DNA of 64,000 nt, from contig JANPRD010000010.1 in NCBI GenBank assembly GCA_024699715.1, positions 39,159 through 103,158 on the forward strand, in the 5' to 3' direction. A model generated the notes under the pieces. The model was not told the DNA's origin and did no database searches. It worked only from the letters and a program-made list of their open reading frames with translations. Position numbers and translations under genes: made by a program. How positions within the stretch are numbered: position 1 is the first letter of the stretch; the number at the start of each line of letters is the position of its first letter. Of the stretch, positions 4,634 through 62,182 are shown in pieces. Source of the stretch: Candidatus Methanophagales archaeon. Lineage in GTDB: Archaea; Halobacteriota; Syntropharchaeia; Alkanophagales; Methanospirareceae.

Positions 4634-7600
4634 TTAAAGATTCACCCTCACGACATTTCCATTCAAAACCGCAGATTCAGGAACTTCAACATTGCGTTCA
4701 ACATCCCACACGACCGTGTTGTTCTCAAAATGACCTCGCCGCAGATTGTATGTTGAGGCGCAAACTGTGTAATTTGTGCCGCCTTCTGCGGGGCTTATTG
4801 GGCTCGGGCATTCCGTTGAATAAGGAACAACGAAAGAGAAAGAGCCGTTTGAGAGCATTCGCTGTGCGTAAGTGAAGGTTCTTCCACGACTTGTCGTGAC
4901 ATTCGTTGAGATTTCAACGATTGAGCCTGCGGGTGCGCTGCCAACAACACGAGCACCCTTCACATATTCAAAAACTTTCACAAATTTCAGCTCATCTCCG
5001 CCGAAAGTCGCAACCGTTGAAGGCGATTCATGCACGAGTCTGTAATGCTTGAGCGGCTCAACAAACTCATTCTCGCTGAGTGCGAAGCCTCTGCCGTCAA
5101 AAAGGTGCAGTCTTATCTCCATAGACCTCCAAAATTTCGGCTTCCGCACAACTCTTGTCCCATTTTCAGTCCATACTTGCATGCAGTAGTTCGTCGTTGG
5201 CTCGCCTGCCCACACAGGATACACCCAACATGTGAAATCAATCATTCTGAAGTCAGAAATGACATAGCGAGAGCCGAGTTCATCAAGAATTTTGTTTGCA
5301 ACGCTCTCATTCTGCGCCAAGAGGAACTCGCAAGCCCCAGGTATGAACGCAAGGATTCTTAAAGTGGCATTCTTCGGCGGTGTCTCGCCCATTAAGACCT
5401 CGTCGCCATCCGTGAATCTGCTATTTCCGTCTTTGTCTGCGACAATCGCCTCACCTTTATCATATTTATAGTTATCATTGGCATCGTAATACATCTCATC
5501 TATGCTGAAACGCCTGAGTTTTGCGTTGATTGGGACTTCGCCGAACAAAGCTTCATCTTCATCCGTAAATTTACCGTTTCTGTCTTTGTCTGCGACGATT
5601 GCCTCTCCTTTTGAGTATCTGCCATCTCCGTTTGCATCGTAATACTTCACAACAGGAGGACCACCTATTCCCGCTTGGAATGGGTTAGCGTTAGGGATGC
5701 GATGTCCGATGAATGTGATAATATGCCCGTAGTCCCACCAACTCATCACACCATACGCACTTTCGGGATAATCGTAGCGCCCCGTCGTCTCATTCAGTTC
5801 GTATGTTGTGTAGTAATCAACTCCAGGGTCAGGCGTGTTATTTCGCATCCATGTCAGCGCATCATACCAGTCATCAGGGGCGCCGTGCCACCTTTCTGAC
5901 GCTATTGCGAGAGAATAATGGACACAAGCGGGCTCTCCTGCGGGAACTCCGAGCGATTCTGACGGTGTGAGGGCGTTGAGCGGAAATGGAAAGAGAATGA
6001 AAGTAATGAGGAGCAAGGAAACGAGAGACCTGCGCAAATTCTTCTCTTCTTTTCGTCCTTTCTCCCTCGCTTGCTTCCAGAAGAGCAGAAGCAGTAAGAG
6101 GAGCAACCATGGGATTAAAGCGGAGATGCCGACATACTTTATTCCTGCGAAAAGCGCTGCGAAAACGCCTGTGGTGAGAGCGATGAGTGGCAAGTCAAAC
6201 GCCTCCTTCTCAGCCTCAACTCGCCCCTTCTTCTTCACGCCACCTTTCTTCTTACGAGCTGCTCGCTGCTCCTTTCTTCGTGCCTCCGCATCCTCCGCAG
6301 CAGCACCGCTCTCTACGATTTCGTAAGTTTTCGTTGCGAAGAGTCCTGTCAGGATGGATGCGTTCACCGCAAGGTAGTAAGCGAAGCGGTTTTGACCCAT
6401 GCCAGGGATTAGGGCGCCGACTGCTGCGAGTATGAAAAGACTCCAGAGGAGCATGAGCAGATGTTCGGGGCGACGACGCTCAAAAAACATCCATGCGAGG
6501 TATGCGAGTGCGAAGTATGAAATAATCAGCGTTATCGGTTCAGCTACGAACCAAGCCCAGCCACCCTCAAAAAGCGGATGCGCCTCCGCAATCGTCAGAG
6601 CGCCGCCCCTGGGCGTGAGTGCGCCGAAAGCACCTAAAACGCTTGAAACAACAGAAGGAGCGAGAACAGAGGCAAACACTGCGACGAATGCAAGCGTGAG
6701 TAGAGGCAAGAAAGGCGTCAATTTCTCGCTGAATCCGCCCGTTCTTCCGACAACGGCACCTCCTCCGCCCGTAACTTTGCCTCCTTTGTTTGCATCTTCA
6801 CTCGCACCCAAAGCACGCTCCTCCCTGCGCCGCAGTGCGTATTTGAAAGCGAGAGGCGCTGAAAAAATAATGAAGCCGAGAGCAAATGTCGCAATATGCT
6901 TTTCGTTGTAAAAAGTGGATAGATTGAAGAAAGGAGCAAGCATTATCAGCGGAATAATGAACTCAAATGCAAGAACTTTGCACAAATAATCAACATCTTC
7001 TCCGCTAACTGCATCAATAATATACTGAATAATGCCGTAAATGAATATTATGAAACGAACATGAGACCTGCGACCCACATTAAGAGGTAAACGCCGAGGG
7101 ATATGCCTGCTGCGAGCGTGAAGAATAGTGGCTTTGCCTCTTCCCTCACGAAAATTGCGAAAAGCGGGACGAGGGCGAAGAAAATGAATGAGACGAGGAG
7201 ACCCCAAGCCCAAGGCAGAGCGAGAATCGGGATGATTGCGCCAGCTGCGAAAACGAGAACCGCCCAATCCCTGCGAGGCTCAATAAAAAATGCTGACTGC
7301 TGCTCCTTCGCATGCTTCACTGCGAGAATGAGGAAAAGCATCGCAACCGTGCTGAACAAGGACTTCGGCGACATGGTGGTCGCAGTAGCCGAGAATTGAG
7401 CGTGAGAGGAACTGACCTGGTATAATTGCAATCAAAGCGGCGGAAATCAATCCTGTTGCACGGTTATGAATCGTTTTACCGATGAAATATGCGGGGAAAA
7501 CGACGCAAGCTCCGAGAATTGCGGGATAATATGCTGCTATTGCATGCGTTAATGCAAGCGTTGGACGCCCAGCGCTTACAATCCAAGGTGCAAAAATCAT

Positions 7601-8333
7601 AATTTGGTCATAAAGAGGTGCGAAGTGCAGGTGACTACCAAACGGGAAGTATGTGAAAGCGTCGTAGAATATGCGGAAGGGGAAGTGGTCGCCGAAGAGT
7701 GCGTTCTCCACGAGACGCATGTGAAACACGGGGTCATCCGAACCGAACCTCCAGACACCGCCACGAAAAACATGCTCGTATGGAAGGAAAGCCCTCAAAA
7801 CGAGTGCAACGCCGAAAATTGACCACAATATGTTGAAAATTGTCAGACGGGACGCAAGCTCGGAAGAGGAACGCTCTGATTCATTACCACTACGCTTCCA
7901 GAAGCCCTCTCGTCCGAAGCATGAAAATTGCAGGAATGCCCGCACAAATCACCGTAACGACAACTGCAGGATTGAAATCAATGTGAAAATGCGGTGCAAA
8001 TGCCACAACAATCGGATATGCGAGGATTAAAAATTCAAGAGGAGCGAGCAGAATGGAGAGTTTCGGCTGAACGAGGCCTTTCCAGAGCAGAAAAGCGAGA
8101 GGAATGCAGTAGGCGCCGAGAATTCCAAAAAAGATGTTCAACGGCTTCGCCCCCACCACAGAAAAAAGCGATGAGATGCCACAAAGGGCGAGTAGCGAAA
8201 CTGCTGTAATATGCTTGAGTTCTTCAAAATCTTGCGCTTTTTCCTCCGCACTCTCCTTCCTCGCCGAGTTTCTTTTTGCGTTCCTTGCGTTTCTTGAGGT
8301 TCTTCCGCTCACTTTCTCTGAAGGCTTCAACAC
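4634..8333 (-). CDS. aglB: oligosaccharyltransferase AglB (STT3), split by about 3 frameshifts
   Basis: DPVFHMR, DHHVAE, TIAEAHP, QNRFAYY, SWWDYGH and NPFQAG motifs spread over ORFs 7280..7945, 7048..7431 and 4634..7267. The membrane ORF 7890..8333 is probably a fused N-terminus. Confidence 0.9.
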
Positions 8334-13051: not shown

Positions 13052-14493
13052 TCATGCAACGAGCAAAACCGCAATGTCATTCACATTCGTGCCTGTCCTG
13101 CCGGTGAGCAGGGCGTCGTTTAGCATGCTGAAGAAAGTGTAAGAGTCGTTGTTTCTCAAAAACGCTTCGGCGTCGAGGGAGGCGTCCTTCGCCCTTTTCA
13201 AGCGTGAATCCGTCTGCGATTGCCCCTGCAGCTTCGCTCACGCCGTCTATGCCGTCTGTGCCGATTGACGCAACGACGATGCCCTCTTCAGAAGCGATGC
13301 GAATAGCTGCACTCAACACGAACTCTTGGTTGCGACCGCCTCTGCCAGTGCCTACAACACTGACGGTTGTCTCGCCACCCGCAATCACCGCTGCTGGCGT
13401 CTTAATCGGAATCCCGTAGCGACGAATGTCCCTCGCAACCGCAACAAAAACCTTCGCAACCTCCCGACTCTCGCCTTCAAGATGCGTCGTTAAGAGAAGC
13501 GTGTTGTAGCCTCTCGCTCCTCGCCTCCTCTTCTGCTGCTCTCGCAGCAACGAGATTATTCCCAATAATTATGTTTTGTGCGTTGCTTATGCGTTTTTCA
13601 TGCTTGCGACGACGCTCCTCTTCCTCCGCCAAGCCTCTTTCAATAAAATTCCTCACGCTCTCTGGAATTCTCGCCCAAAGTCCGTACTTTTCAAGCACTC
13701 CCTTCGCCTCGCTGAATGTTGAAGTGTCTTCAGCGGTCGGACCTGAAGCAATCGCATCAACAGGGTCGCCAATCACATCCGAGAGAATGAGAGCAAGCGT
13801 TTTCGCAGGCATCGCAGCTTCGGCGAGCTTCCCGCCCTTCACCGCCGAAATCTTCTTGCGCACCACATTCAATTCGCTCACTGTGCATCCAGACCTCAAA
13901 AGAAGCTCCGTTACCGCTTTTTTGTCTTCAAGCGTGAGACCTTCAGCGGGCTTTGCGAGCAGTGAAGAGCCGCCTCCTGAAATTAGAGCGATGAAAATGT
14001 CATTTTTCTCGCACTTCCGAGCGATTTCAAGCGCCTTCTCCGCTGCATGCACAGAGCTCTCGTCTGGAACAGGGTGCGATGCCTCCAAAACTTCAAAATT
14101 CTTCGGATGCGAGCCACAACGCTGACCTCTCGGAATGACCACAATTCCCTCGTCAACGCTCAAAATTTCCTCAATCGCTCTCGCCATCCCAAGACTCGCC
14201 TTGCCAAAGGCAACAACCCTCACCTTACCACGCAGTTCAACATCTGCGGTGGCGTTCTCGCCTGAAACCTTCAGCTTTCTGCCCTCAACTCTCACACGGT
14301 TGCACATAAGTTCGTAAGGGTCGGCGGATTTCACCGCACTTGCGAGTATTGCAAGAGCATCCGCTCTCAATTTCTTCAACTTCCCTCCGCATGCAACGAT
14401 TTCATCGTAATTTGCGAAGAGTTTGCGAGCAGCCTCCTCATTCCTTACGCTCTCTCGCTTTTTCATCCCTCTGACCACTTCCTCTTTCTTCAA
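13052..14493 (-). CDS. glycerate 2-kinase (DUF4147/MOFRL), two frameshifts
   Basis: GKAS, HPVPD, ISGGGSSL, SDVIGD..IASGPT, GGETTV, GGRNQE, TDGIDG; a third frame ends TGRTGTNVNDIAVLLVA*. Confidence 0.9.
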
Positions 14494-48129: not shown

Positions 48130-50526
48130 ATGGAGGTCAAGCGAGGGGGAGAGGTGCTGACGCTTGAGGGTTTGGAGAATGTGCGGATTTTCATCGGTAA
48201 GATAGAGGGAGAAGAGGAGGAAGAGGAGGAATGGGAGCCGGTGGGACCGACGCCGATGCCCACGATTGCGACACTTCGCTCTTGGGATTTCAAGTTACTG
48301 CGTCGTTACAAGCCTTTCTATGCGCCATTCTGCGATTTCTGCTGCCTCTGCACATTCGGTAAGTGCGATTTAACGGGCAACAAGAAGGGTGCTTGCGGCA
48401 TCAGAATGGACGCACAGCAAGGAAGAATCGTGCTTCTCGCATGCATTATCGGATGTTCTGCACACTGCGGGCATGGAAGACACATGCTTCACGAATTATT
48501 GAGGAAGTTCGGTGATGTTGAAATAGATTTTGGACCTGAAATTGATATTGAAGCGCCATTAACTCGCCTTATTTGCGGCATAAAGCCTCGCAGGATAAGC
48601 GATTATGAGCAGGTTTTTGATTATGTAGAAAAGGAATTGGTGCAGTTGAGCGATGCTTTGCACACTGGTCAGGAGGGTTCTTACCTTGATTTTGAGTCTA
48701 AGGCGTTTCATGTCGGAATGCTTGACTCGCTGAGCAAGGAAGCAGCAGACATCATACAGATGGCAGCCTACGGGATGCCCTCAAGCAAAGAAGGCGGGGG
48801 TCCTGATGTTCCGCTTGTTGAAGTTGGCATGGGCGTCGTTGACACAACGAAAGCGGTCATCCTCGTCATCGGACACAATGTCGTGCCTGCAGCAGAAATC
48901 GCTGACTACATGGAAGAAAGCGGGCATGAGGACGAGATTGAGCTCGTAGGAATATGTTGCACCGCTCACGACGTCACGAGATACAAACCGAAGGCTAAAA
49001 TCATTTCAGCACTCGGCAGGCAGCTCCGTGTGATAAGAGCGGGAATCGCAGATGTGATTGTTGTGGATGAGCAGTGCATACGAGCGGATGTCGTTGAATC
49101 TGCGAGCAGAGTGCATTCACCCGTGATTGCTACGAACGAGAAGGCGATGCACGGCTTGGAAGACCGCACGGATGACCCCGCAGACGAGATTGTTGAGGAT
49201 TTGGTGAGTGAGCGAGTGCCCGGTGTTGTGATTTTAGACCCTGAGAAAGTCGGCGAAGTCGCAGTGAAGACGGCTTTGCGAATGAAGGAGAAGCGTCGTA
49301 AAATGCGAATAATTATGAGCGATGAGGAATTTCAGCGCTGGGTGAGAGAGTGCATTCAATGCGGTTCTTGCACGCTTGCATGCCCTCTCGGCTTGAGAAT
49401 CGGTGAGGCGAATGCGAAAGCAGCATCAGGAAATAAAGAGGCGCTCGCTTCCCTCTTTGACATCTGCGTCGGCTGCGGTCGCTGCGAGCAGGTATGCAAG
49501 AAGCATATTCCGATAATTGATGTGATTACGAAGGCAGCATACCCGAAAATAAAGGAGGAGAGGGGGAAAATAAGGGTTGGTCGTGGTCCTATTTGGGACA
49601 GTGAGATAAGAGAAGTCGGCGCTCCCATCGTTTTAGGAACAATTCCCGGTGTAATTGCACCTATCGGATGCGGAAATTATCCCAATGGAACGAGGGATGC
49701 GTGGCTGATTGTTGAAGAGTTCGCATCACGCAACTACATCGTCACACTTACGGGATGCATGGCGATTGACGCTGCGCTCTGGAAGGACGAAGAAGGTAAA
49801 ACGGTCTACGAGAAATATCACGGCAGATTTGACGCTGGTGGCGTCCTGAACATCGGCTCCTGCGTCGCAAATGCGCACATTCACGGCGCTGCAATAAAAA
49901 TCGCTGCGATATTTGCGAGGCGGAAATTGCGAGCGAACTACGAGGAAATCGCAGACTACATTTTAAATAGAGTGGGCGCTTGCGGTGTCGCATGGGGAGC
50001 GATGTCGCAGAAGGCTGCTTCAATCGCAACAGGCTTCAACCGTTTGGGTGTTCCAGCAGTTGTCGGTCCGCATGGCACAAAATACCGCAGAGCATTCCTC
50101 GGCAGGAGCGATATTGAGGAGGATTGGCTCATCTTTGATGCGAGGGACGGCTCTGAAGTCAGGATTGAGCCCGCACCTGAGCATTTGCTCGTCGCATGCG
50201 AGACGATTGAAGAAGCCCTGCCGATGATTGCGAAGCTTTGCTTCAGACCTTCTGACACTGACAGGGGACGCTCAATTAAACTCACACACTACATTGATTT
50301 GCACGAGAAATATTTGGGGTGCCTGCCGAAAGACTGGCATCTTTTCGTGAGAACCGCAGCAGACCTGCCGATTGCACGCAGGGACGAACTGCTCAAGCGC
50401 CTTGAGGACGAGCATGGCTGGGTGATTGACTGGAAGCGTAAGCGAATAAAGGAAGGCCCTCTGCGAGGCTACGACCCTTCTTTCGACCCGACAAACCTCC
50501 GCAGGCTCATTCGGCAGAAGAAATGA
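48130..50526 (+). CDS. cdhA: CO dehydrogenase/acetyl-CoA synthase alpha subunit
   Basis: CDFCCLCTFGKC, GICCTAHD, DEQC, two ferredoxin motifs, GSCVANAH. Confidence 0.95.
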   Translation: MEVKRGGEVLTLEGLENVRIFIGKIEGEEEEEEEWEPVGPTPMPTIATLRSWDFKLLRRYKPFYAPFCDFCCLCTFGKCDLTGNKKGACGIRMDAQQGRIVLLACIIGCSAHCGHGRHMLHELLRKFGDVEIDFGPEIDIEAPLTRLICGIKPRRISDYEQVFDYVEKELVQLSDALHTGQEGSYLDFESKAFHVGMLDSLSKEAADIIQMAAYGMPSSKEGGGPDVPLVEVGMGVVDTTKAVILVIGHNVVPAAEIADYMEESGHEDEIELVGICCTAHDVTRYKPKAKIISALGRQLRVIRAGIADVIVVDEQCIRADVVESASRVHSPVIATNEKAMHGLEDRTDDPADEIVEDLVSERVPGVVILDPEKVGEVAVKTALRMKEKRRKMRIIMSDEEFQRWVRECIQCGSCTLACPLGLRIGEANAKAASGNKEALASLFDICVGCGRCEQVCKKHIPIIDVITKAAYPKIKEERGKIRVGRGPIWDSEIREVGAPIVLGTIPGVIAPIGCGNYPNGTRDAWLIVEEFASRNYIVTLTGCMAIDAALWKDEEGKTVYEKYHGRFDAGGVLNIGSCVANAHIHGAAIKIAAIFARRKLRANYEEIADYILNRVGACGVAWGAMSQKAASIATGFNRLGVPAVVGPHGTKYRRAFLGRSDIEEDWLIFDARDGSEVRIEPAPEHLLVACETIEEALPMIAKLCFRPSDTDRGRSIKLTHYIDLHEKYLGCLPKDWHLFVRTAADLPIARRDELLKRLEDEHGWVIDWKRKRIKEGPLRGYDPSFDPTNLRRLIRQKK

Positions 50527-50534
50527 GAGCGCAT

Positions 50535-50665
50535 GAATGGGTGAGTGTGAGGTAAGTGAGAGTGAAAGAGCGTGAGAGTGAGGGTGTGAGAGTGAGAGGG
50601 CGTGAGAGTAAGCGTGTGAGAGCGTGAGTGTGAGGCGGAGAGAGGGGTGTGTGTGGAAGGTGAGA
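50535..50665. repeat. intergenic GTGAGAGTGA-type simple repeat
   Basis: Many GTGAGAG(T/C) units between cdhA and cdhB. Confidence 0.7.
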
Positions 50666-50669
50666 GGAG

Positions 50670-51203
50670 ATGCGAGCGAGGGAAGTGCCTTTTGACATTG
50701 CGAACATTCCAGGGCAGGAAACGGGCAGGATAGTCTCTGCGGAAGTTGCAGCAGCGCTCATTTCTGCTTCTCACCGTCCTTTGCTCGTCGTCGGTTCAGA
50801 AGTGATGCGAGACGAATTTTTTGTGGAGAAAGCGATTGAAATGGGCGAAAAGGGCGTTGCAATCGCCGCAACTGGAAAAAGCATCAGGGGCTTCATGCGT
50901 AAAGGCTACAAAAAAGTTCAATATTTCAACCTTCACGACATCACTAACCGCCTTCGTGACCCAAATTGGAGAGGTATTGACGGCAACGGAAACCACGACA
51001 CCGTCATATTCTTCGGCATCTTATACTATTACGCATCACAAATGCTCTCATGCCTTAAAAATTTCGCATTGAACCCTCTGATTCGCACAATATCCATAGA
51101 CAGATACTACCATCCGAATGCGAGATTCACATTCCCCAACATTGAAAGCGACGAAGAATACAAAAAAATGATAGAAAAGGTCGTTGAATTGGTGAAGCGG
51201 TGA
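50670..51203 (+). CDS. cdhB: CO dehydrogenase/acetyl-CoA synthase epsilon subunit
   Basis: RPLLVVG, W.GIDGNGNHD, IDRYYHPNA; follows cdhA. Confidence 0.9.
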   Translation: MRAREVPFDIANIPGQETGRIVSAEVAAALISASHRPLLVVGSEVMRDEFFVEKAIEMGEKGVAIAATGKSIRGFMRKGYKKVQYFNLHDITNRLRDPNWRGIDGNGNHDTVIFFGILYYYASQMLSCLKNFALNPLIRTISIDRYYHPNARFTFPNIESDEEYKKMIEKVVELVKR

Positions 51204-51482: not shown

Positions 51483-52829
51483 ATGATGATGAGAAAAGAG
51501 TGGAAGACACTAATCGTAGCAATATTTATAGGTAGTGTATGTATTGGGGCGGTCTCGGCACAAGGCAGTCTCGTCAGTGATTATCCCGAACTAAAGCCGT
51601 TAGTTGACTTCGTTGGCGAAGAGGAAATATCAGTGATGGATTTAGTAGGGTATAAAGCTGCGGAGAAGGCGATGGAAGAGTTGGGATTCAGCAAAGGCGA
51701 CCCAAACATTCTGGCACTTACCGACGCAGGATATATTGCAAACATTGACAAGTATAGCACGGAAAGAGCCCTTAACGGTCTGATGATGGCTGCTGGAGTC
51801 TCACAAGGCAAAGGGAATTTGGTGAATGTGCATCGTGCGTATAATAAACCGCTTTGGTTTGCTTTCTTTGACAAAGAGACTGGCGATTGCATCTACCTTG
51901 AGGTAAACAAGAGCTACCTTAAGTCGTGGTTAGACAGGGAAGCTGCAGGCTCAGTAAATCTTTCAGCGTTCATGGAGGTCGGTGCAGATGCTTTGTTCTC
52001 GAAGATTTCCAGAGAGAATATAGACCCAGACAGGCTTATCACCGAGGAAGGGGCAAAGGCATGGCATCACAACTTTGAGGAGAAAACGTTCGGTGGAAAT
52101 GAGTTCAGCATTATCACCATAAGCGCTGTCTGGAGCAAAGGGATAAGCAATGAATTCCTGAGGAGTGCGGAACTCCACAATCATATCTGTCCCGGACTAA
52201 CGAGTGGTTACTTTATAGCGGAATACCTGAAGAAGCACTATCCGCTGGAGAAGGGCGAACAATGGGTTGTTTGGGCTGTTCCACCATGGTGCAAGGACGA
52301 TGCCTTGCAGCAAATACTTGACGCCACCGTAGGGAAGAGATGTATGGCTGTAATGTATATTCCGGGCAATATCAGCAAGAAGCTCCCTCCTGAGTACAAG
52401 AACATAGCGGGGATATACGTAAAAATAGGCAAGACAGGAGAGGCAAAAGCGATAGTTCTGGGTTGGGACTGGGATAAAGCCTGCTCCGACTGTGGAATCA
52501 CCAGGAAGGACTTCAAAGATTTTAGCAGCTACAAATGGTGGTGGACACGGCTCAGAGCGGATGTAATGCTCATGGAGCATGAGCCTGAGGAATACATCTC
52601 CGTGCTTATGGAAAAAGATTTGGGAAATCAAGGCTCGATTAAAGAGATGAATGCCAAGTGGATGGCAGTGGGCGCAAATCCGCTGGTCGAACTGGGCATC
52701 ATGCCACCTGAAAACACAGCAACACCGAAAACCCCAGAAAAAACTCATTCAATTCCAGTAACTTGCGTCATAGCAGCCATAGCCATTGCAAGTGTGCTCG
52801 CAATAGTAAGAAAAAACATGCGGAAATGA
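51483..52829 (+). CDS. secreted, C-terminally anchored FmdE-domain protein
   Basis: Signal peptide; ELHNHICPG and WCKDDA FmdE metal motifs; P/T linker, TM helix and basic tail. Confidence 0.75.
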   Translation: MMMRKEWKTLIVAIFIGSVCIGAVSAQGSLVSDYPELKPLVDFVGEEEISVMDLVGYKAAEKAMEELGFSKGDPNILALTDAGYIANIDKYSTERALNGLMMAAGVSQGKGNLVNVHRAYNKPLWFAFFDKETGDCIYLEVNKSYLKSWLDREAAGSVNLSAFMEVGADALFSKISRENIDPDRLITEEGAKAWHHNFEEKTFGGNEFSIITISAVWSKGISNEFLRSAELHNHICPGLTSGYFIAEYLKKHYPLEKGEQWVVWAVPPWCKDDALQQILDATVGKRCMAVMYIPGNISKKLPPEYKNIAGIYVKIGKTGEAKAIVLGWDWDKACSDCGITRKDFKDFSSYKWWWTRLRADVMLMEHEPEEYISVLMEKDLGNQGSIKEMNAKWMAVGANPLVELGIMPPENTATPKTPEKTHSIPVTCVIAAIAIASVLAIVRKNMRK

Positions 52830-52925
52830 CATAATAATTCCCAACTAAGAGAGAAAACGAAAATCTTAAATACCCAAAGAATATTGGGAAGAATGGTGTA
52901 AAGGTGTAAGGAGGTGATGTAAAAA

Positions 52926-53090
52926 ATGTGCGCACCGGTAAGTGTAAGTGCGGCGACAGTGGGCGGGGCGGTAGCAGCTCAGGCGATAGCGATGAGCCAG
53001 ATTATAGCCGTCGCTGTTCTCGGCAGTATCTCCGCCCTGAACTTCCTTCATCCGCTAAGAAGGCGAAATGCGGAGAAGATAGAGGGATAG
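52926..53090 (+). CDS. 54-aa peptide MCAPVSVSAATVGGAVAAQAIAMSQIIAVAVLGSISALNFLHPLRRRNAEKIEG (not in the ORF track)
   Basis: AGGAGGTGA RBS just upstream, TATA-like CTTAAATA near 52865, ATG..TAG in frame. Confidence 0.65.
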   Translation: MCAPVSVSAATVGGAVAAQAIAMSQIIAVAVLGSISALNFLHPLRRRNAEKIEG

Positions 53091-53136
53091 GAAGAGAGGG
53101 GAATACTTTCCTTCCCTTTTTCATTTTTTCCCAAAA

Positions 53137-53976
53137 ATGCTCAAACGGATGTTCAGCTACCTGACATTGCAAATAGAGCCTACGAGAGAATGCAACTTGA
53201 ACTGTAAAATCTGCATGCGGAGACATCTTGATAAGGGAGGTTCTCTCTCTTTTGAGAGCTTCAAGCGAATACTTGATGCTTACAATTTCCGCTATGTCGG
53301 ACTGCACGGCTGGGGAGAGCCGCTATTAAACCCTGAATTGTTTGATATGCTGAAATATGCGAAATCGCGTGGCGTGATAACAAATCTCACAACTAACGGC
53401 ATACTCGTTGAAGAGCATGTGAAGGACATTCTCGCATCGGGCTTGAACGATATCGCTTTCGGAATATACAGCATGCGCGCTCTCGATAAATTCAGGGCGG
53501 GTTTGGAGAAGCTTCTGAGCGAGCGGTCGCAGAGAAATTTGAAGCTTCCCAAAACTTATTTTGATATTACCATATATCGTGATAATTATAATGAAATTCC
53601 CGACCTTATTGAGACTGCCATAGATTTAGGTGTAGATGCAGTAATCCTTCATAGACTCTTCAATATATATAAAGTGGATCGTGATGTGGAATATATAACG
53701 AGGGAAGAGGAAGAGATGCTGTTCAGAAAAGTGAAAAAGATGAGTAAAGAGAGGAAATATAGGATTTATTTGCCGAGAAGACATGTATTGCCCTGCATAT
53801 ATGTGAAAAGGAGCATTTTCGTGACCTGGGATGGCAAAGTAACGCCTTGCTGCTACCTACCGGATTATTATTTGGGGGATGCACTCAAGGAAAACTTTAA
53901 AAAAATTTTGCGAGAGCGAAGTAAATTCATCAGAAACATGCACAAACATCCCATCTGTGCCAAGTGCATATGGTGA
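53137..53976 (+). CDS. radical SAM protein with SPASM/Twitch domain
   Basis: CNLNCKIC, GWGEP, TTNG, and C-terminal C..(WDGKVTPCC)..CAKC. Confidence 0.9.
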   Translation: MLKRMFSYLTLQIEPTRECNLNCKICMRRHLDKGGSLSFESFKRILDAYNFRYVGLHGWGEPLLNPELFDMLKYAKSRGVITNLTTNGILVEEHVKDILASGLNDIAFGIYSMRALDKFRAGLEKLLSERSQRNLKLPKTYFDITIYRDNYNEIPDLIETAIDLGVDAVILHRLFNIYKVDRDVEYITREEEEMLFRKVKKMSKERKYRIYLPRRHVLPCIYVKRSIFVTWDGKVTPCCYLPDYYLGDALKENFKKILRERSKFIRNMHKHPICAKCIW

Positions 53977-54043
53977 GTTGAGGAGAGCCATGAATGAGAG
54001 AGGAGGTGGCGCTGGAGCAGATTGGAAAACAGGAGGTGAAGAG

Positions 54044-54610
54044 ATGAAGCTGAAATCATATTTTGGAGTGTATGAGTTTTCCTTTATACTCTTGTCTGCT
54101 CTCGCCAGCGCTATATTGAATACTTACCTACCGATAAAAGCGGTTACGCAATTGCTCGGCATACCAGGACCTGCAGCGGGAATGGCATTGTTGGGTGGAT
54201 TTATCTTTGTTTTTTGGGTTGCTCTGGCATGCGATATTGTCAAAAAAAGATATACAGGAATCGTTACCTCGCTTTTAATCGCCTCTTTTTGCCTGCTTAT
54301 ATATCCTTGGTATGGAGTTATTTCGCCCCCATGGTTTGGCGTTTACGGAATTATTGCTCTTCTTTCAATGGGTATTCTTGTGGAGCTAACAGCATATAAG
54401 TCAAGATTATTGGCGATAACTGGAGGAGGTCTCGGGAATTTATCGTGTTTAGTGATTACATGGACTGCTATCGGAGTTCATGTTGGGGTATGGATACCGT
54501 CAATATTCGCACCAATTCTTATGCTCGCTGCTTTCATTTCCGGATGTGTTGGCTCGTTAATAGCGTATTATATTACAGATAAAATTAAAAAAGAAAGTTT
54601 CACATCGTGA
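54044..54610 (+). CDS. about 6-TM membrane protein, ECF S-component-like
   Basis: AGGAGGTGA RBS, 188 aa, hydrophobic, IPGPAAG and KRYTG loop motifs. Confidence 0.55.
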   Translation: MKLKSYFGVYEFSFILLSALASAILNTYLPIKAVTQLLGIPGPAAGMALLGGFIFVFWVALACDIVKKRYTGIVTSLLIASFCLLIYPWYGVISPPWFGVYGIIALLSMGILVELTAYKSRLLAITGGGLGNLSCLVITWTAIGVHVGVWIPSIFAPILMLAAFISGCVGSLIAYYITDKIKKESFTS

Positions 54611-54677: not shown

Positions 54678-54745
54678 CAGCCGGGGGCGGTGTTCGGCGA
54701 CCTTCAGATTATGAATCTAACGCCCTCCAGCTAGGCCACCCGGCT
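54678..54745 (-). pseudogene. degenerate tRNA(CAT) with a truncated T-arm
   Basis: AGCCGGG/CCCGGCT acceptor, TAGCTGG D-loop, TTAGA-TTCATAA-TCTGA anticodon arm, AGGTC variable loop; no GTTCG. Confidence 0.65.
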
Positions 54746-59083: not shown

Positions 59084-60819
59084 CTAAAACAGCGAAAGCG
59101 GTATGTAAGGGCGAATAATTGAAAAGAAAATCAGGAAGAATATGGAAATGCTCATGACTGCGGCTATCGCTCTTGAAATCTTCTCCCTTTTCCGCTCTTC
59201 CTTTAGGAAAACGAGGGACGATTTCACAACCTCTTGAAACACATAACCGCCGTCGAGAGGGATTGCGGGGAGACAATTGAAAAGAGCGACCCAAAAATTA
59301 ATCCAAGCAGTCCAAAAGATGACATCCGCAACAAGAAATGCAACTCGCTGCGGTGCGAATGGGAATTTGTAAAAGTGCGTGAGGAGCGGGCTGAATCCGT
59401 TGAAGCCTCCCTGTGCAGGCGAGAGGAAAGGAAGAGCGGTGAGTCTTAGCCAACCCTCAGGCGAGTTCAAAGATGCGGGAATGCCTCTCAAATGATTCAA
59501 GTATTCTTCCGTGGGGAACGCAGCGACCGCCATTCCGAAAGGCATGTTCGCCACAACGACACCCAAAAATCCCTTTTTCTCGCCGTAAGGAGATGTAGTT
59601 AAGTTCACTACAACCTCTTTCGTCTCACCAGAAGCCGTCTGCACACGAATTCTCAGCGTTTGACCGGGATGCGTTTGATTCATGAATGCGAGGAACTCCT
59701 CAAAACCGCCTATTGTAGTGCCGTTTATTGCAATAATGCACATTCCTCCTCTTATTCCAGCACGCTCCGCAGGGAAAGCCCTCAAATGTTTGCAGAATCC
59801 AGACGCCTTTACTGCCACCTTCAACGGTCAGTGTGCGTTCAGTGCCATTCTCGTCTAAAACTTTCAGAGCCACTCGCTCACGACCAGAAAACGCATCTTT
59901 CAAATCCTCAACGCCTCTCACGGGAACACCGTCAACCGCAAGGACAAGCATACCCGCTTTCAACCCCGCTCGCTCCGCAGGACTCCCGGGTGCGACGCTG
60001 TAAACATAAGGAACACTCTCGCTCACAGGCTGAATCGCAGCGAGAAAAGCGAAAAAAAGCAGGAAAGCGAGCGCTGCAACGCAGAAATTAGATGTCACGC
60101 CCGCTGCGAGAATCCTCGTTCTCTCCTTCGCCGTCGCAACCTTCTCCACCGACGCCTCGCCTTCGCCGACGCCTTCACCGTCATCCTCCTTCGCCGACCC
60201 GCTCTCTCCACACTCTCCTTCCTCCTCCGCCATTCCCTGCCTTCTCAGCCTTTCTTGCCTCTGCTGTCTTCACTGCTTTTCCCGCCTTTTTACCGAAGAG
60301 TTGCTCGCTGTCGGGTTCAGCAAAGCCCCCGATGGGGATGAGGGCGAGGATAATGCCCATTGATTTCACTCTTATTCCTTCAACTTTGCAGAGAACTGCA
60401 TGCGATATTTCGTGAGCGACGAGTGCAATAACAAGACCTATCCAACCATAGAGGGGAATGAACTCGTTAATGCCGGGAATTAGGAGCATATTTCGTGGCT
60501 CGCTCAGCTTTGATGGTGCGGGAGGCGTCGTTAACATCATGAAAAAACTCAAAATCAGCAGGATGAACATTGAAATCATTGAGATAATGACGAGAGAGAT
60601 GCCGAAATTTGCGAAGCATCGCCAGAATTTTCTGCGTATGCGACCTCCTGCGAGTGTTTCGAGGAGGCGCTGACCCCTCTTCGTTCGCAACATTAAAATA
60701 GGACCGAAAGCGGAGATGTTGTGGCGTTGCAGGACGCCTCTCCGCTCAAGAATTAGCACGAGAAGCCAATACGCAAGAAATACATACAGCACCACAAGAA
60801 GCGACGACAACGCCACCAC
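59084..60819 (-). CDS. site-2 (M50) intramembrane metalloprotease with PDZ domains, two frameshifts
   Basis: HEISH, GGFAEP, AAGVTSN, two PDZ (SPAERAG), NCLPAIPLDGG. Confidence 0.9.
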
Positions 60820-60879: not shown

Positions 60880-62182
60880 TCAGGTTTCGCAAGGGAAACC
60901 CAGTAGTCTCGGAGGGATTATTTGATGCCTTAGGAAATCTCCGAAAGTCTCACGCTCCCGCACAAGTTCAGCTCTTCCGTTGCTCACGAGAACCTCAGCA
61001 CAGCGAGGTCGCATATTGTATTGCGAGCTCATTGAGAAGCCGTAAGCACCGACATCTAAAATTGCGAGTATGTCGCCTCGCTCTACCGGAGGAAGCCTCC
61101 TCTCTCCGAAAATGTCGCCTGACTCGCACAGCGGACCGACAATTGTGTATTCCTCCGCAGGCTCAACACCAATCTTGTTCGCAACGAGAATCTCATGGTA
61201 AGCACCATACATCGCAGGTCTCACGAGGATGTTGAAGCCTGCATCCACCGCAACAAAGTTCTTAGCAGCTCGCTTCACCGCTTGCACTTTCGTTAGCAGA
61301 ATGCTCGCATTACCGACAATTGAGCGTCCAGGCTCCAAAATAAGCTTCACAGGCTCCTTCAAGCGAGCAGATTTGAACGCAGGCATGAATGCGTGAGCGA
61401 GGTCTTTCGGCGTCGGGGCGTTCTTTTTCTCCGAAGGCGTGTAGCCGATGCCGAGACCTCCGCCCAAATCCACGAAATCAATTTCAAATTTTTGTTGAAG
61501 ATGCGAAGCGATGCGCAGCATTTTCTCGGCAGCCTCCCTGAAAACGCTCAATTCAAAAATCTGCGAGCCGACATGGCAGTGAATACCGCAAAGTGCGAGA
61601 CCTCGCCTCTCAACATAACTGCAGGCTGCGAAGACTTCCTCCGCTGGAATGCCAAATTTTGATGTCTTGAGTGCAGTCGCAATCTTCGGGTGTGTCCTCA
61701 CCGAAATCTCAGGATTCACTCGCACCGCAACCCTCACACGCTCATCCTCGCTTACAGAACCTTGCGACATCCGAGAGAGCATCCGCCTCGTCTGTGGAGT
61801 CTAAACACACGCAGACGCCTGTCTCAACCGCAAGACGCAGCTCATCCTCGCTCTTCGCATTCCCGTTGAATATAATTTTTTGCGGTGGGATGCCCGCAAG
61901 CATCGCAGACTTCAACTCAAAATCAGAGACGACATCCGCACCTGAACCCTCCGTAGCGAGTATTCTCAGGATTGCGAGGCTCCAGTTCGCTTTCACCGCA
62001 TAGCAAATCTCAACATCCTCAACAACTGCGACTTCTTCCTTGAATGCGCTGAACGCCTCCTTGTATGCTCTGAAGTTCTCTCGCACCCTCGCCTCGTCCG
62101 TAACTATTAAGGGAGTGCCGAACCTCTCCGCAAGCTCCACTACATCCACTCCGCCGAAATGCAAATGCTCGCCTCCTTCCAC
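60880..62182 (-). CDS. lysA: diaminopimelate decarboxylase, frameshift near 61760
   Basis: YAVKAN, SKFG, HCHVGSQ, DLGGG, EPGR, CESGD, GAYG. Confidence 0.95.

Follow-up and report, generated by a model that had tools for sequence, protein, structure and literature searches.

Why does an archaeal genome keep a 54-residue open reading frame (ORF) directly ahead of a gene for a radical S-adenosylmethionine (SAM) enzyme, and what might the pair do? The arrangement lies in the window analysed here, a 64,000-nucleotide stretch of contig JANPRD010000010.1 from a Candidatus Methanophagales archaeon. A sequence-only reading had interpreted the small ORF, the enzyme and a downstream membrane protein as a candidate system for a peptide made on ribosomes and modified after its translation (RiPP). 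We found that the small ORF is a genuine, conserved gene. Four plus-strand genes form one conserved module, with the peptide and its dedicated radical SAM enzyme as the core; the other two encode an exported metal-binding protein of the FmdE family, overlooked in the earlier reading, and a membrane protein that resembles in fold the S-components of energy-coupling factor (ECF) transporters. The reading we prefer, at a probability of roughly 0.5, is that the product is a Cys peptide, anchored in the membrane and tailored by the radical SAM enzyme, that works in a module for trace-metal uptake. The features are as follows.

51483-52829, plus strand: exported FmdE-domain protein, 448 aa (PF02663, E 1.9e-19)
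52866-52872, plus strand: TATA-like box TTAAATA, 54 nt before the peptide ATG (from sequence; putative promoter element)
52909-52917, plus strand: Shine-Dalgarno site AGGAGGTGA, 8 nt ahead of the ATG at 52926 (from sequence)
52926-53090, plus strand: 54-aa single-pass membrane peptide with N-terminal M-C-x-P, presumed substrate of the radical SAM enzyme (ORF, homology, selection ratio, hydropathy)
53094-53131, plus strand: weak hairpin (53094-53121), then T5 and T6 runs, between the peptide and radical SAM genes
53137-53976, plus strand: radical SAM enzyme, 279 aa, with CX3CX2C (C19, C23, C26) and a short SPASM/Twitch-type C-terminal domain (Pfam, alignment, model)
54031-54039, plus strand: second Shine-Dalgarno site AGGAGGTGA, 4 nt ahead of the ATG at 54044 (from sequence)
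54044-54610, plus strand: 188-aa six-helix membrane protein with a predicted ECF S-component fold (AlphaFold2 model, Foldseek)

The peptide gene and its place beside the enzyme gene

The signals and spacing reported from the letters alone were all recovered. The TATA-like element placed near 52865 is the heptamer TTAAATA, the ribosome-binding site is the AGGAGGTGA listed above, and the ORF translates exactly to the 54-aa peptide that had been quoted; its stop codon is followed, as claimed, by a gap of 46 nt and then by the radical SAM start codon at 53137. When the upstream regions of the window and its five closest relatives were aligned, TTAAATA was unchanged in 6/6, with a conserved AAAACCGAAAG ahead of the box, and the relatives retained a GGAGG/GGGGTGAT-like element before the small ORF. 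Because the box is invariant in all six upstreams, the small gene appears to have its own promoter. Compared with five relatives, the ratio of nonsynonymous to synonymous changes (pN/pS) in the window ORF was 0.20-0.41. The weak hairpin with its U-tract, described earlier as following the peptide gene, is present together with the T-runs, but as a terminator it does not rise above chance (3 terminator-like sites against 2.9 expected; fold z-score -1.1). Since archaeal transcription can terminate at oligo-T runs alone, this stretch may still act as a partial terminator.

The distribution of the gene was followed in a scan of one genome per species. The radical SAM protein was aligned with 15 database relatives (alignment A1, 16 sequences), and the scan gave 180 pattern matches, 101 of them confirmed as encoding a radical SAM relative; the best 80 of these 101 radical-SAM-bearing stretches were kept, and locus counts throughout refer to them. 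They come from ANME-1 (anaerobic methanotrophic archaea, group 1)/Methanophagales, other bins labelled Methanosarcinales, Archaeoglobaceae, Thermoproteota, Bathyarchaeota, Altiarchaeota, Hydrothermarchaeota, Methanoregula, Methanoculleus, Dehalococcoidia, Desulfobacteraceae and other bacteria. At 82% identity, the nearest enzyme relative belongs to a Candidatus Methanophagaceae bin (locus L001), which marks the window as DNA of an ANME-1-type archaeon.

The positional search asked for an ORF of 35-100 aa that starts with M-C-x-P, shares the strand of the radical SAM gene and has its end no more than 450 nt upstream or 40 nt downstream of that gene's start; such an ORF was found in 73/80 loci, in archaea and bacteria alike. 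The sequence-only reading had named conservation of a small ORF beside homologous enzymes as its check, and on this point it was borne out. Only 42 other M-C-x-P ORFs occurred in the 634,182 bases on the two strands, or about 0.016 expected per site, and several of these were true second copies. One of the seven loci missed by the pattern, L055, has no upstream DNA at all. A peptide profile found a match somewhere in 76/80 loci, plus the window; it missed L039, L040, L047 and L055, and for L039, L040 and L055 little or no sequence is available on the side expected to hold the peptide gene. Loci L038 and L051 carry their peptide genes downstream, past genes for tetratricopeptide repeat (TPR) proteins. 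In many loci a tblastn search with the 54-aa peptide gave a match that begins at its first residue and lies immediately upstream of the radical SAM gene; the peptide ORFs so matched also appear in an unfiltered ORF listing.

The family extends well into public data. Public protein sets held 149 clusters at E <= 0.001, each with the name 'hypothetical protein' where one was given and none with a Pfam domain. An exhaustive profile search of 1.84 billion representatives returned 58 matches. Of these, 56 were 37-73 aa long and, with few exceptions, aligned from residue 1, and in the remaining two, both long proteins, the similarity was confined to the hydrophobic part. The MCxP start was present in 156 of 167 small database hits, hidden behind a start called too early in 10, and absent in 1. 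A profile search of proteins of 126-2000 aa gave no fused form, which is weak evidence, and an ESM Atlas search with the peptide gave no usable match. When peptides from seven lineages were compared with NCBIfam and Pfam no relevant family was matched, the L005 peptide alone reaching 17 bits against mraY, below the cutoff.

What is conserved is the extreme N-terminus, M1-C2-x-P4-(I/V)-(S/T)-V7. In an alignment of 73 peptides chosen by the MCxP pattern, position 5 was I, V, A or T, position 6 was S, T, A or V, and position 7 was V in 66/73. A transmembrane-like 19-mer (mean Kyte-Doolittle hydropathy at least 1.6) was present in 66/73 peptides, with a median start at position 19, and Lys and Arg were more numerous after the hydrophobic stretch than before it in 72/73. 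This enrichment predicts one membrane pass, with the N-terminus outside and the C-terminus inside. The charged C-terminal follower of the earlier proposal would instead be a transmembrane helix with a basic tail. The GG motif noted there was rejected as a leader cleavage site, the conserved element being residues 1-7; G14 is kept in just 45/73 peptides and no C39-type peptidase lies nearby. Archaeal members, the window peptide included, have Cys2 as their single Cys, and many bacterial members add a CxxxC (86/165 database members).

Some loci hold additional peptide genes, a few of them divergently transcribed (Archaeoglobaceae), that also begin MC(A/V/T)P. A second, divergent gene lies upstream of the main one on the minus strand at L070:4663-4535, L072:4675-4553, L074:1023-898 and L050:4156-4040, and these four translated copies begin MCTPVYV; weaker profile matches were obtained at L054:4668-4549, L062:4647-4522 and L071:2067-1939, likewise on the minus strand. 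All belong to Archaeoglobaceae loci except that of L050, a Desulfurococcales locus. Given these divergent second genes, one enzyme may serve two peptide types. In L001, a second MCVP peptide gene (5923-6072, plus strand) and a TPR gene from 6100 onward (plus strand) come after the radical SAM gene, in place of the S-component-like gene, and the sequence then enters a masked stretch of N.

The radical SAM enzyme and its presumed substrate

The 279-aa enzyme matched PF04055 (5.6e-14) and the SPASM family PF13186 (2.8e-10), in line with the earlier call of a SPASM-type radical SAM enzyme. Seven Cys were invariant in 16/16 aligned sequences: C19, C23, C26, C220, C238, C274 and C277. Because only four of them (C220, C238, C274, C277) are auxiliary, the C-terminal domain is better described, on sequence grounds, as Twitch-like than as full SPASM, with one auxiliary cluster's worth of ligands, and the earlier call needs amending to that extent. 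We take the four-Cys arrangement to be like the BtrN/Twitch ligand pattern; in a profile comparison with the sequences of solved structures, the C-terminal region did align to BtrN. Similarity to those sequences was remote, the best E value being 2.6e-8 over the radical SAM core.

The best NCBIfam matches were TIGR04317, 'tungsten cofactor oxidoreductase radical SAM maturase' (122.7 bits against a cut-off of 380), and TIGR04311 (77.5 bits against 400), both putative metalloenzyme or cofactor maturase families. With the best scores so far under the cut-offs, the enzyme belongs to no curated family. More broadly, the peptide and the membrane protein are covered by no Pfam, NCBIfam or PADLOC family and the enzyme scores below every curated cut-off, and a full-text literature search, whose coverage excludes subscription-only papers, found no published description of the module. 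A role as prokaryotic viperin in anti-phage defence was rejected, because the PADLOC pVip match (47 bits) is confined to residues 16-119, the generic radical SAM core; PADLOC gave no match for the other three module proteins.

Structural comparison of the AlphaFold2 model (predicted local distance difference test, pLDDT, 87.5) placed the enzyme among peptide maturases and other radical SAM enzymes. Its best matches were SkfB (TM-score by query, TMq, 0.78), SuiB (0.74), BlsE, PqqE and CteB (0.70), followed by DesII, MoaA, NifB, BtrN, EpeE, viperin and the anaerobic sulfatase-maturating enzyme anSME (TMq 0.71). It shares with SkfB, CteB, SuiB, PqqE and EpeE the predicted fold, the CX3CX2C motif with a C-terminal auxiliary-cluster domain and a Cys peptide encoded alongside. 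It differs from SPASM/Twitch peptide maturases in its small size, in having only four auxiliary Cys, in lacking an N-terminal RiPP recognition element (RRE) and in the position of the presumed substrate motif at the extreme N-terminus of the peptide.

Since the peptide and the radical SAM enzyme form an invariant pair, the simplest reading is that the peptide is the enzyme's substrate. A precedent for a radical SAM enzyme that tailors a small structural subunit is found in QhpD and QhpC. The sulfatase-maturating enzymes, which recognise C/S-x-P/A-x-R and carry two auxiliary clusters, offer another comparison: the peptide has C-x-P at positions 2-4 and anSME is among the fold matches, but the present enzyme lacks the Cys for a second auxiliary cluster. 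An anSME-like CxPxR substrate was rejected because the motif, C-x-P-(I/V/A/T)-(S/T/A/V), contains no Arg, residue 6 being S, T, A or V.

A peptide gene adjoining a SPASM/Twitch radical SAM gene, the leading place of sactipeptide and streptide maturases among the fold matches and the possible partial terminator after the peptide gene would all suit a classical RiPP, an antimicrobial or a signal with the membrane protein as immunity or uptake factor, as first proposed. That proposal is partly supported, by the invariant pairing and the maturase-like predicted fold, but other hallmarks are missing. The Pfam scan detected two domains only in the enzyme and no PqqD-like RRE, no PqqD-like family recurs among the neighbours, and clustering of neighbouring ORFs likewise revealed no recurrent peptidase or export ABC transporter, in agreement with the earlier remark that neither RRE nor protease is evident. 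In the peptide family no leader/core layout was found: conserved residues 1-7 are succeeded by the transmembrane helix and basic tail, with no hypervariable core. From Thermoproteota to Dehalococcoidia the module is conserved and keeps its partners, with enzyme identities of 33-82%, whereas bacteriocin loci are usually patchy and fast-evolving; the membrane protein has the fold of an importer, and the terminator is not above chance. We regard a classical RiPP as improbable.

The membrane protein, the FmdE-like protein and the neighbourhood

The complete membrane-protein ORF spans 53879-54610. Because the second AGGAGGTGA precedes the ATG at 54044 and homologues begin at the equivalent residue, the true start is most likely 54044 and not 53879. 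The AlphaFold2 model of this protein (pLDDT 93.7) has six long helices, as the earlier estimate of about six transmembrane segments implied. Its top Foldseek matches were ECF S-components, namely 5edl (TM-score 0.62), RibU (0.58) and ThiT (0.56), with probabilities of 0.99-1.0, as well as BioY (0.45). The model thereby assigns the protein an ECF S-component fold, that of an importer, which does not accord with the immunity function suggested before. The window protein matched no Pfam or NCBIfam family; a distant Methanoregula homologue scored 24.9 bits with PF09819 (ABC_cobalt), just below the cut-off of 25.2. Homologues were present in 49/80 loci.

The gene upstream of the peptide encodes the FmdE-like protein. 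As read from its sequence, it consists of an N-terminal signal-like segment, the FmdE domain, a Thr/Pro-rich linker and a C-terminal membrane anchor. Beyond the domain match, it shares with the FmdE family (PF02663) the ligand pattern H232-x-H234-x-C236...C270, each position at least 95% conserved in 30 full-length homologues; these residues are equivalent to the Zn/Ni ligands His15, His17, Cys19 and Cys55 described for solved FmdE proteins in the structure paper (PMC2954224). It departs from the family in being exported and membrane-anchored, in an extra N-terminal region of about 200 residues and in the lack of a zinc-finger tail, and a phmmer search against solved structures gave no match. 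The authors of the FmdE structures state that most PF02663 genes adjoin metal-ion transporter genes and mention fusions of FmdE domains to a TrmO/UPF0066-like family (PMC2954224). A family of that type is found near the module in four loci (L025:227-790, L037:2911-3315, L044:4376-4768 and L055:1261-1665), and the member scanned, from L025, matched PF01980 and TIGR00104. Directly upstream of the FmdE-like gene lie cdhA and cdhB (48130-51203, plus strand), which encode subunits of the nickel enzyme carbon monoxide dehydrogenase/acetyl-CoA synthase; a link between them and the module was rejected, as L001, the closest relative, does not retain this gene order.

All-against-all clustering of the ORFs of the 80 loci and the window yielded only four widely shared families: the radical SAM enzyme (81 sources), the membrane protein (50), the FmdE-like protein (36; 35/80 loci) and a TPR protein of about 485-530 aa (33). 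None of the recurrent families was a protease or an exporter. Flanks long enough to judge the partners (at least 2.5 kb upstream and 1.5 kb downstream) were available for 44 loci: an FmdE-like or TPR protein was present in 35/44 and the membrane protein in 29/44, and 14 of the 15 loci without the membrane protein have the TPR protein.

Less frequent neighbours included TonB-dependent receptors (7 loci), Fur-family regulators (5 loci), cytoplasmic FmdE + zinc-finger proteins (6 loci) and a DUF4198 family (4 loci; the single member scanned, in L005, carries PGF-CTERM). Others were ExbB with DUF3450, an extracytoplasmic function sigma factor with its anti-sigma factor and a Metal_resist protein, DUF364/DUF4213 'heavy-metal chelation' proteins and, in a Desulfosarcina locus, CobN with an MptD-type S-component and CbiQ. 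Taken together, the neighbourhood points to trace-metal acquisition and not to an antibiotic-type peptide. One of the TonB-dependent receptor ORFs (L019:2392-3963, plus strand) matched NCBIfam NF049945, 'FCYXU motif-type' with a selenocysteine motif, at 694 bits; it ends at 523 aa against a model of 697 positions, probably owing to an in-frame TGA read as selenocysteine.

These counts bear on another explanation, in which the peptide is an unmodified accessory subunit of the transporter and the radical SAM enzyme acts elsewhere, on a small molecule or on the FmdE-like or TPR protein. The fallback offered by the sequence-only reading, a small membrane accessory protein, was of this kind, and we judge it half right. 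The nickel and cobalt S units NikM and CbiM are reported to need small membrane proteins (PMC3945884), the small-molecule enzymes BlsE, MoaA, DesII and BtrN are near in fold to the enzyme, and both of its best NCBIfam matches, far below their cut-offs as they are, belong to metalloenzyme or cofactor maturases. However, the peptide remains beside the radical SAM gene even where the membrane and FmdE-like proteins are absent, as in loci of the order TonB-TPR-peptide-radical SAM, so that it tracks the enzyme and not the transporter. Many loci lack the FmdE-like protein and many the TPR protein, and an invariant Cys2 is typical of a modification site. An unmodified subunit therefore seems distinctly unlikely.

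Up to three copies of the module occur per ANME-1 bin. Loci L012, L035 and L048 belong to one such bin and L004 and L049 to another, each with paralogous radical SAM and peptide genes; in a quick version of the radical SAM tree these paralogous loci fell into different clades, and their partners were either FmdE-like and membrane proteins or TPR proteins.

Elsewhere in the window the genes are of housekeeping type. Just downstream of the membrane-protein gene, Rfam detected a tRNA at 54678-54745 on the minus strand (RF00005, 36.6 bits against a gathering score of 29) that ARAGORN missed; by eye its anticodon loop contains CAT and its T-arm is non-canonical. Four pairs of adjoining ORFs on the same strand, all minus, each matched two parts of a single family: AglB/STT3 (4634-7945), a glycerate-kinase-like DUF4147 and MOFRL pair (13077-14493), an M50 peptidase (59084-60819) and an Orn/DAP decarboxylase (60880-62182). 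They may represent frameshifts, assembly errors or truly split genes.

A possible part in metal uptake

We infer that the module imports a metal. Under the preferred reading, the peptide would be expressed from its own promoter and strong ribosome-binding site, and the enzyme would modify its N-terminal M-C-x-P-(I/V)-(S/T)-V stretch in the cytoplasm. Cys2 would be the likeliest target, through a thioether cross-link, an oxidation or the formation of a heterocycle. The peptide would then insert so that its N-terminus faces out and its basic tail faces in, and it would stay anchored, neither cleaved nor released. Outside the cell, the tailored Cys N-terminus could cooperate with the S-component-like permease and with the surface-anchored FmdE protein and its His2Cys2 metal site; for some of these partners, other genomes would substitute a TPR lipoprotein and a TonB-dependent receptor. 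The outcome would be joint capture and import of a thiophilic trace metal of the Ni, Co or Zn class, or of a metal complex, in sulfidic anoxic habitats.

Several observations weigh against this reading. The S-component assignment depends on fold: the best Foldseek E value was 6.7e-3, none reaching 0.001, a sequence search of the Protein Data Bank with the membrane-protein profile gave no match, and comparison by hhalign of the membrane-protein family with the MptD-type S-component of L068 returned a probability of 0.4%. The window contains no ECF T or A component and none recurs near the module in the 80 loci, although a shared one encoded elsewhere in the genome may serve it; CbiQ and an ABC ATPase do occur close by in L068, but the S-component there is a different one. 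Because the membrane protein is missing from 15/44 flank-sufficient loci, the peptide must also function without it. The Fur-family and TonB receptor matches are generic, and the neighbour counts were drawn from metagenome bins, many with short contigs. Small-molecule radical SAM enzymes (BlsE, DesII, MoaA) match the fold nearly as well as peptide maturases do, and the chemistry of the modification cannot be predicted, modification itself being a prediction. Finally, the invariance of M1, C2 and P4 within the 73-row alignment is circular, because its rows were picked by the MCxP pattern; support free of this circularity comes from tblastn, the unfiltered ORF listing, the positional pattern count with its background, the profile search and the starts of the database hits.

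The same metal-uptake neighbourhood would also fit if the peptide were a sacrificial precursor. The radical SAM enzyme would then tailor the N-terminus and an unlinked protease would release a Cys-derived chelator, a diffusible metallophore or a cofactor; once loaded with metal, this product would be taken back up through the S-component or TonB receptor, with the FmdE-like and TPR proteins acting on it extracellularly. PQQ, made from PqqA, and methanobactin follow this logic of a product released from a peptide precursor. PqqE is among the top fold matches, small molecules are the usual cargo of S-components and TonB receptors, several peptide copies per single enzyme gene suit a substrate that is consumed, and Cys-built RiPP metallophores such as the bufferins have been described (PMC11626156). 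Set against this, no protease or exporter recurs among the neighbours, the conserved part amounts to about seven N-terminal residues with a single Cys in the archaeal members, and the transmembrane helix and positive-inside tail are kept in hydrophobicity across phyla, which is hard to explain for a discarded follower. We hold a released product to be unlikely.

Comparison with known metallophores separates the module further. Methanobactin operons contain TonB receptors or sigma/anti-sigma pairs, and both kinds of gene also occur near the present module. Bufferins and methanobactin are ribosomal peptides whose Cys are enzymatically tailored for metal handling, as bufferins are presented in their description (PMC11626156), and the same tailoring is proposed for the peptide studied here. 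Those systems, in contrast, use MNIO/DUF692 enzymes instead of a radical SAM enzyme, and they have a signal or leader and release the product, unlike a peptide that looks membrane-anchored, carries its motif in residues 1-7 and shows no leader.

A structural analogy is offered by nickel and cobalt uptake. NikM is described as a six-helix S-core with an additional N-terminal helix; the first 9 residues of the protein close off the binding pocket, with Met1 and His2 as Ni ligands, and its function requires small additional membrane proteins (PMC3945884). The peptide of the module presents a comparable N-terminus, with M1, C2 and P4 conserved, a key residue at position 2 and a predicted outside location in 72/73 cases, and it could supply in trans the extracellular N-terminus, brief and strongly conserved, that the extra helix provides in NikM. 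Its pairing with a six-helix S-like protein likewise recalls the small membrane partners of NikM and CbiM (N, or K and L). The differences are substantial: the extra helix would be a separate gene product, no fused form having been found, residue 2 is Cys where NikM has His, and Met1-Cys2 lies on a separate 54-aa protein. A dedicated radical SAM enzyme, absent from Nik and Cbi systems, is always present, no T or A component is adjacent, the membrane protein has no sequence similarity to known S-components, and the peptide is also found without it.

The analogy leads to the boldest view of the module, in which the peptide and the six-helix protein together make a split NikM-like metal S unit whose hook needs enzymatic tailoring. 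The 54-aa peptide would be a detached seventh helix, and its tailored M-C-x-P loop would enter the S-component pocket and supply a sulfur ligand for a thiophilic metal passed on by the surface-anchored FmdE-type His2Cys2 protein; in Gram-negative members the tailored peptide would work with the TPR lipoprotein and the TonB-dependent receptor. We advance this tentatively, as a doubtful though specific possibility, and not as the base claim, because the peptide also occurs without the membrane protein in loci of the TonB/TPR type. The module thus mixes features of radical SAM peptide maturases, RiPP metallophores and bipartite Ni/Co S units, and by the tests that define each of these it belongs to none.

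ANME-1 and their neighbours have a large demand for Ni, Co, Fe and W/Mo and live in sulfide-rich sediments that offer little of these metals in available form; how they acquire them is poorly understood. A conserved peptide with an importer-like protein and an exported metal-binding protein is a concrete candidate for metal acquisition by anaerobes. Its enzyme would add to the peptide-modifying radical SAM enzymes a very small, RRE-less member directed at an N-terminus. Methanoculleus palmolei DSM 4273, a methanogen in culture whose genome is complete, carries a homologous locus (L076), which makes experiments feasible. If the split S unit is true, the module would be the first transporter with a substrate-binding residue made by radical SAM chemistry, and a candidate answer to how ANME-1 and other anaerobes of sulfidic sediments are supplied with Ni and Co.

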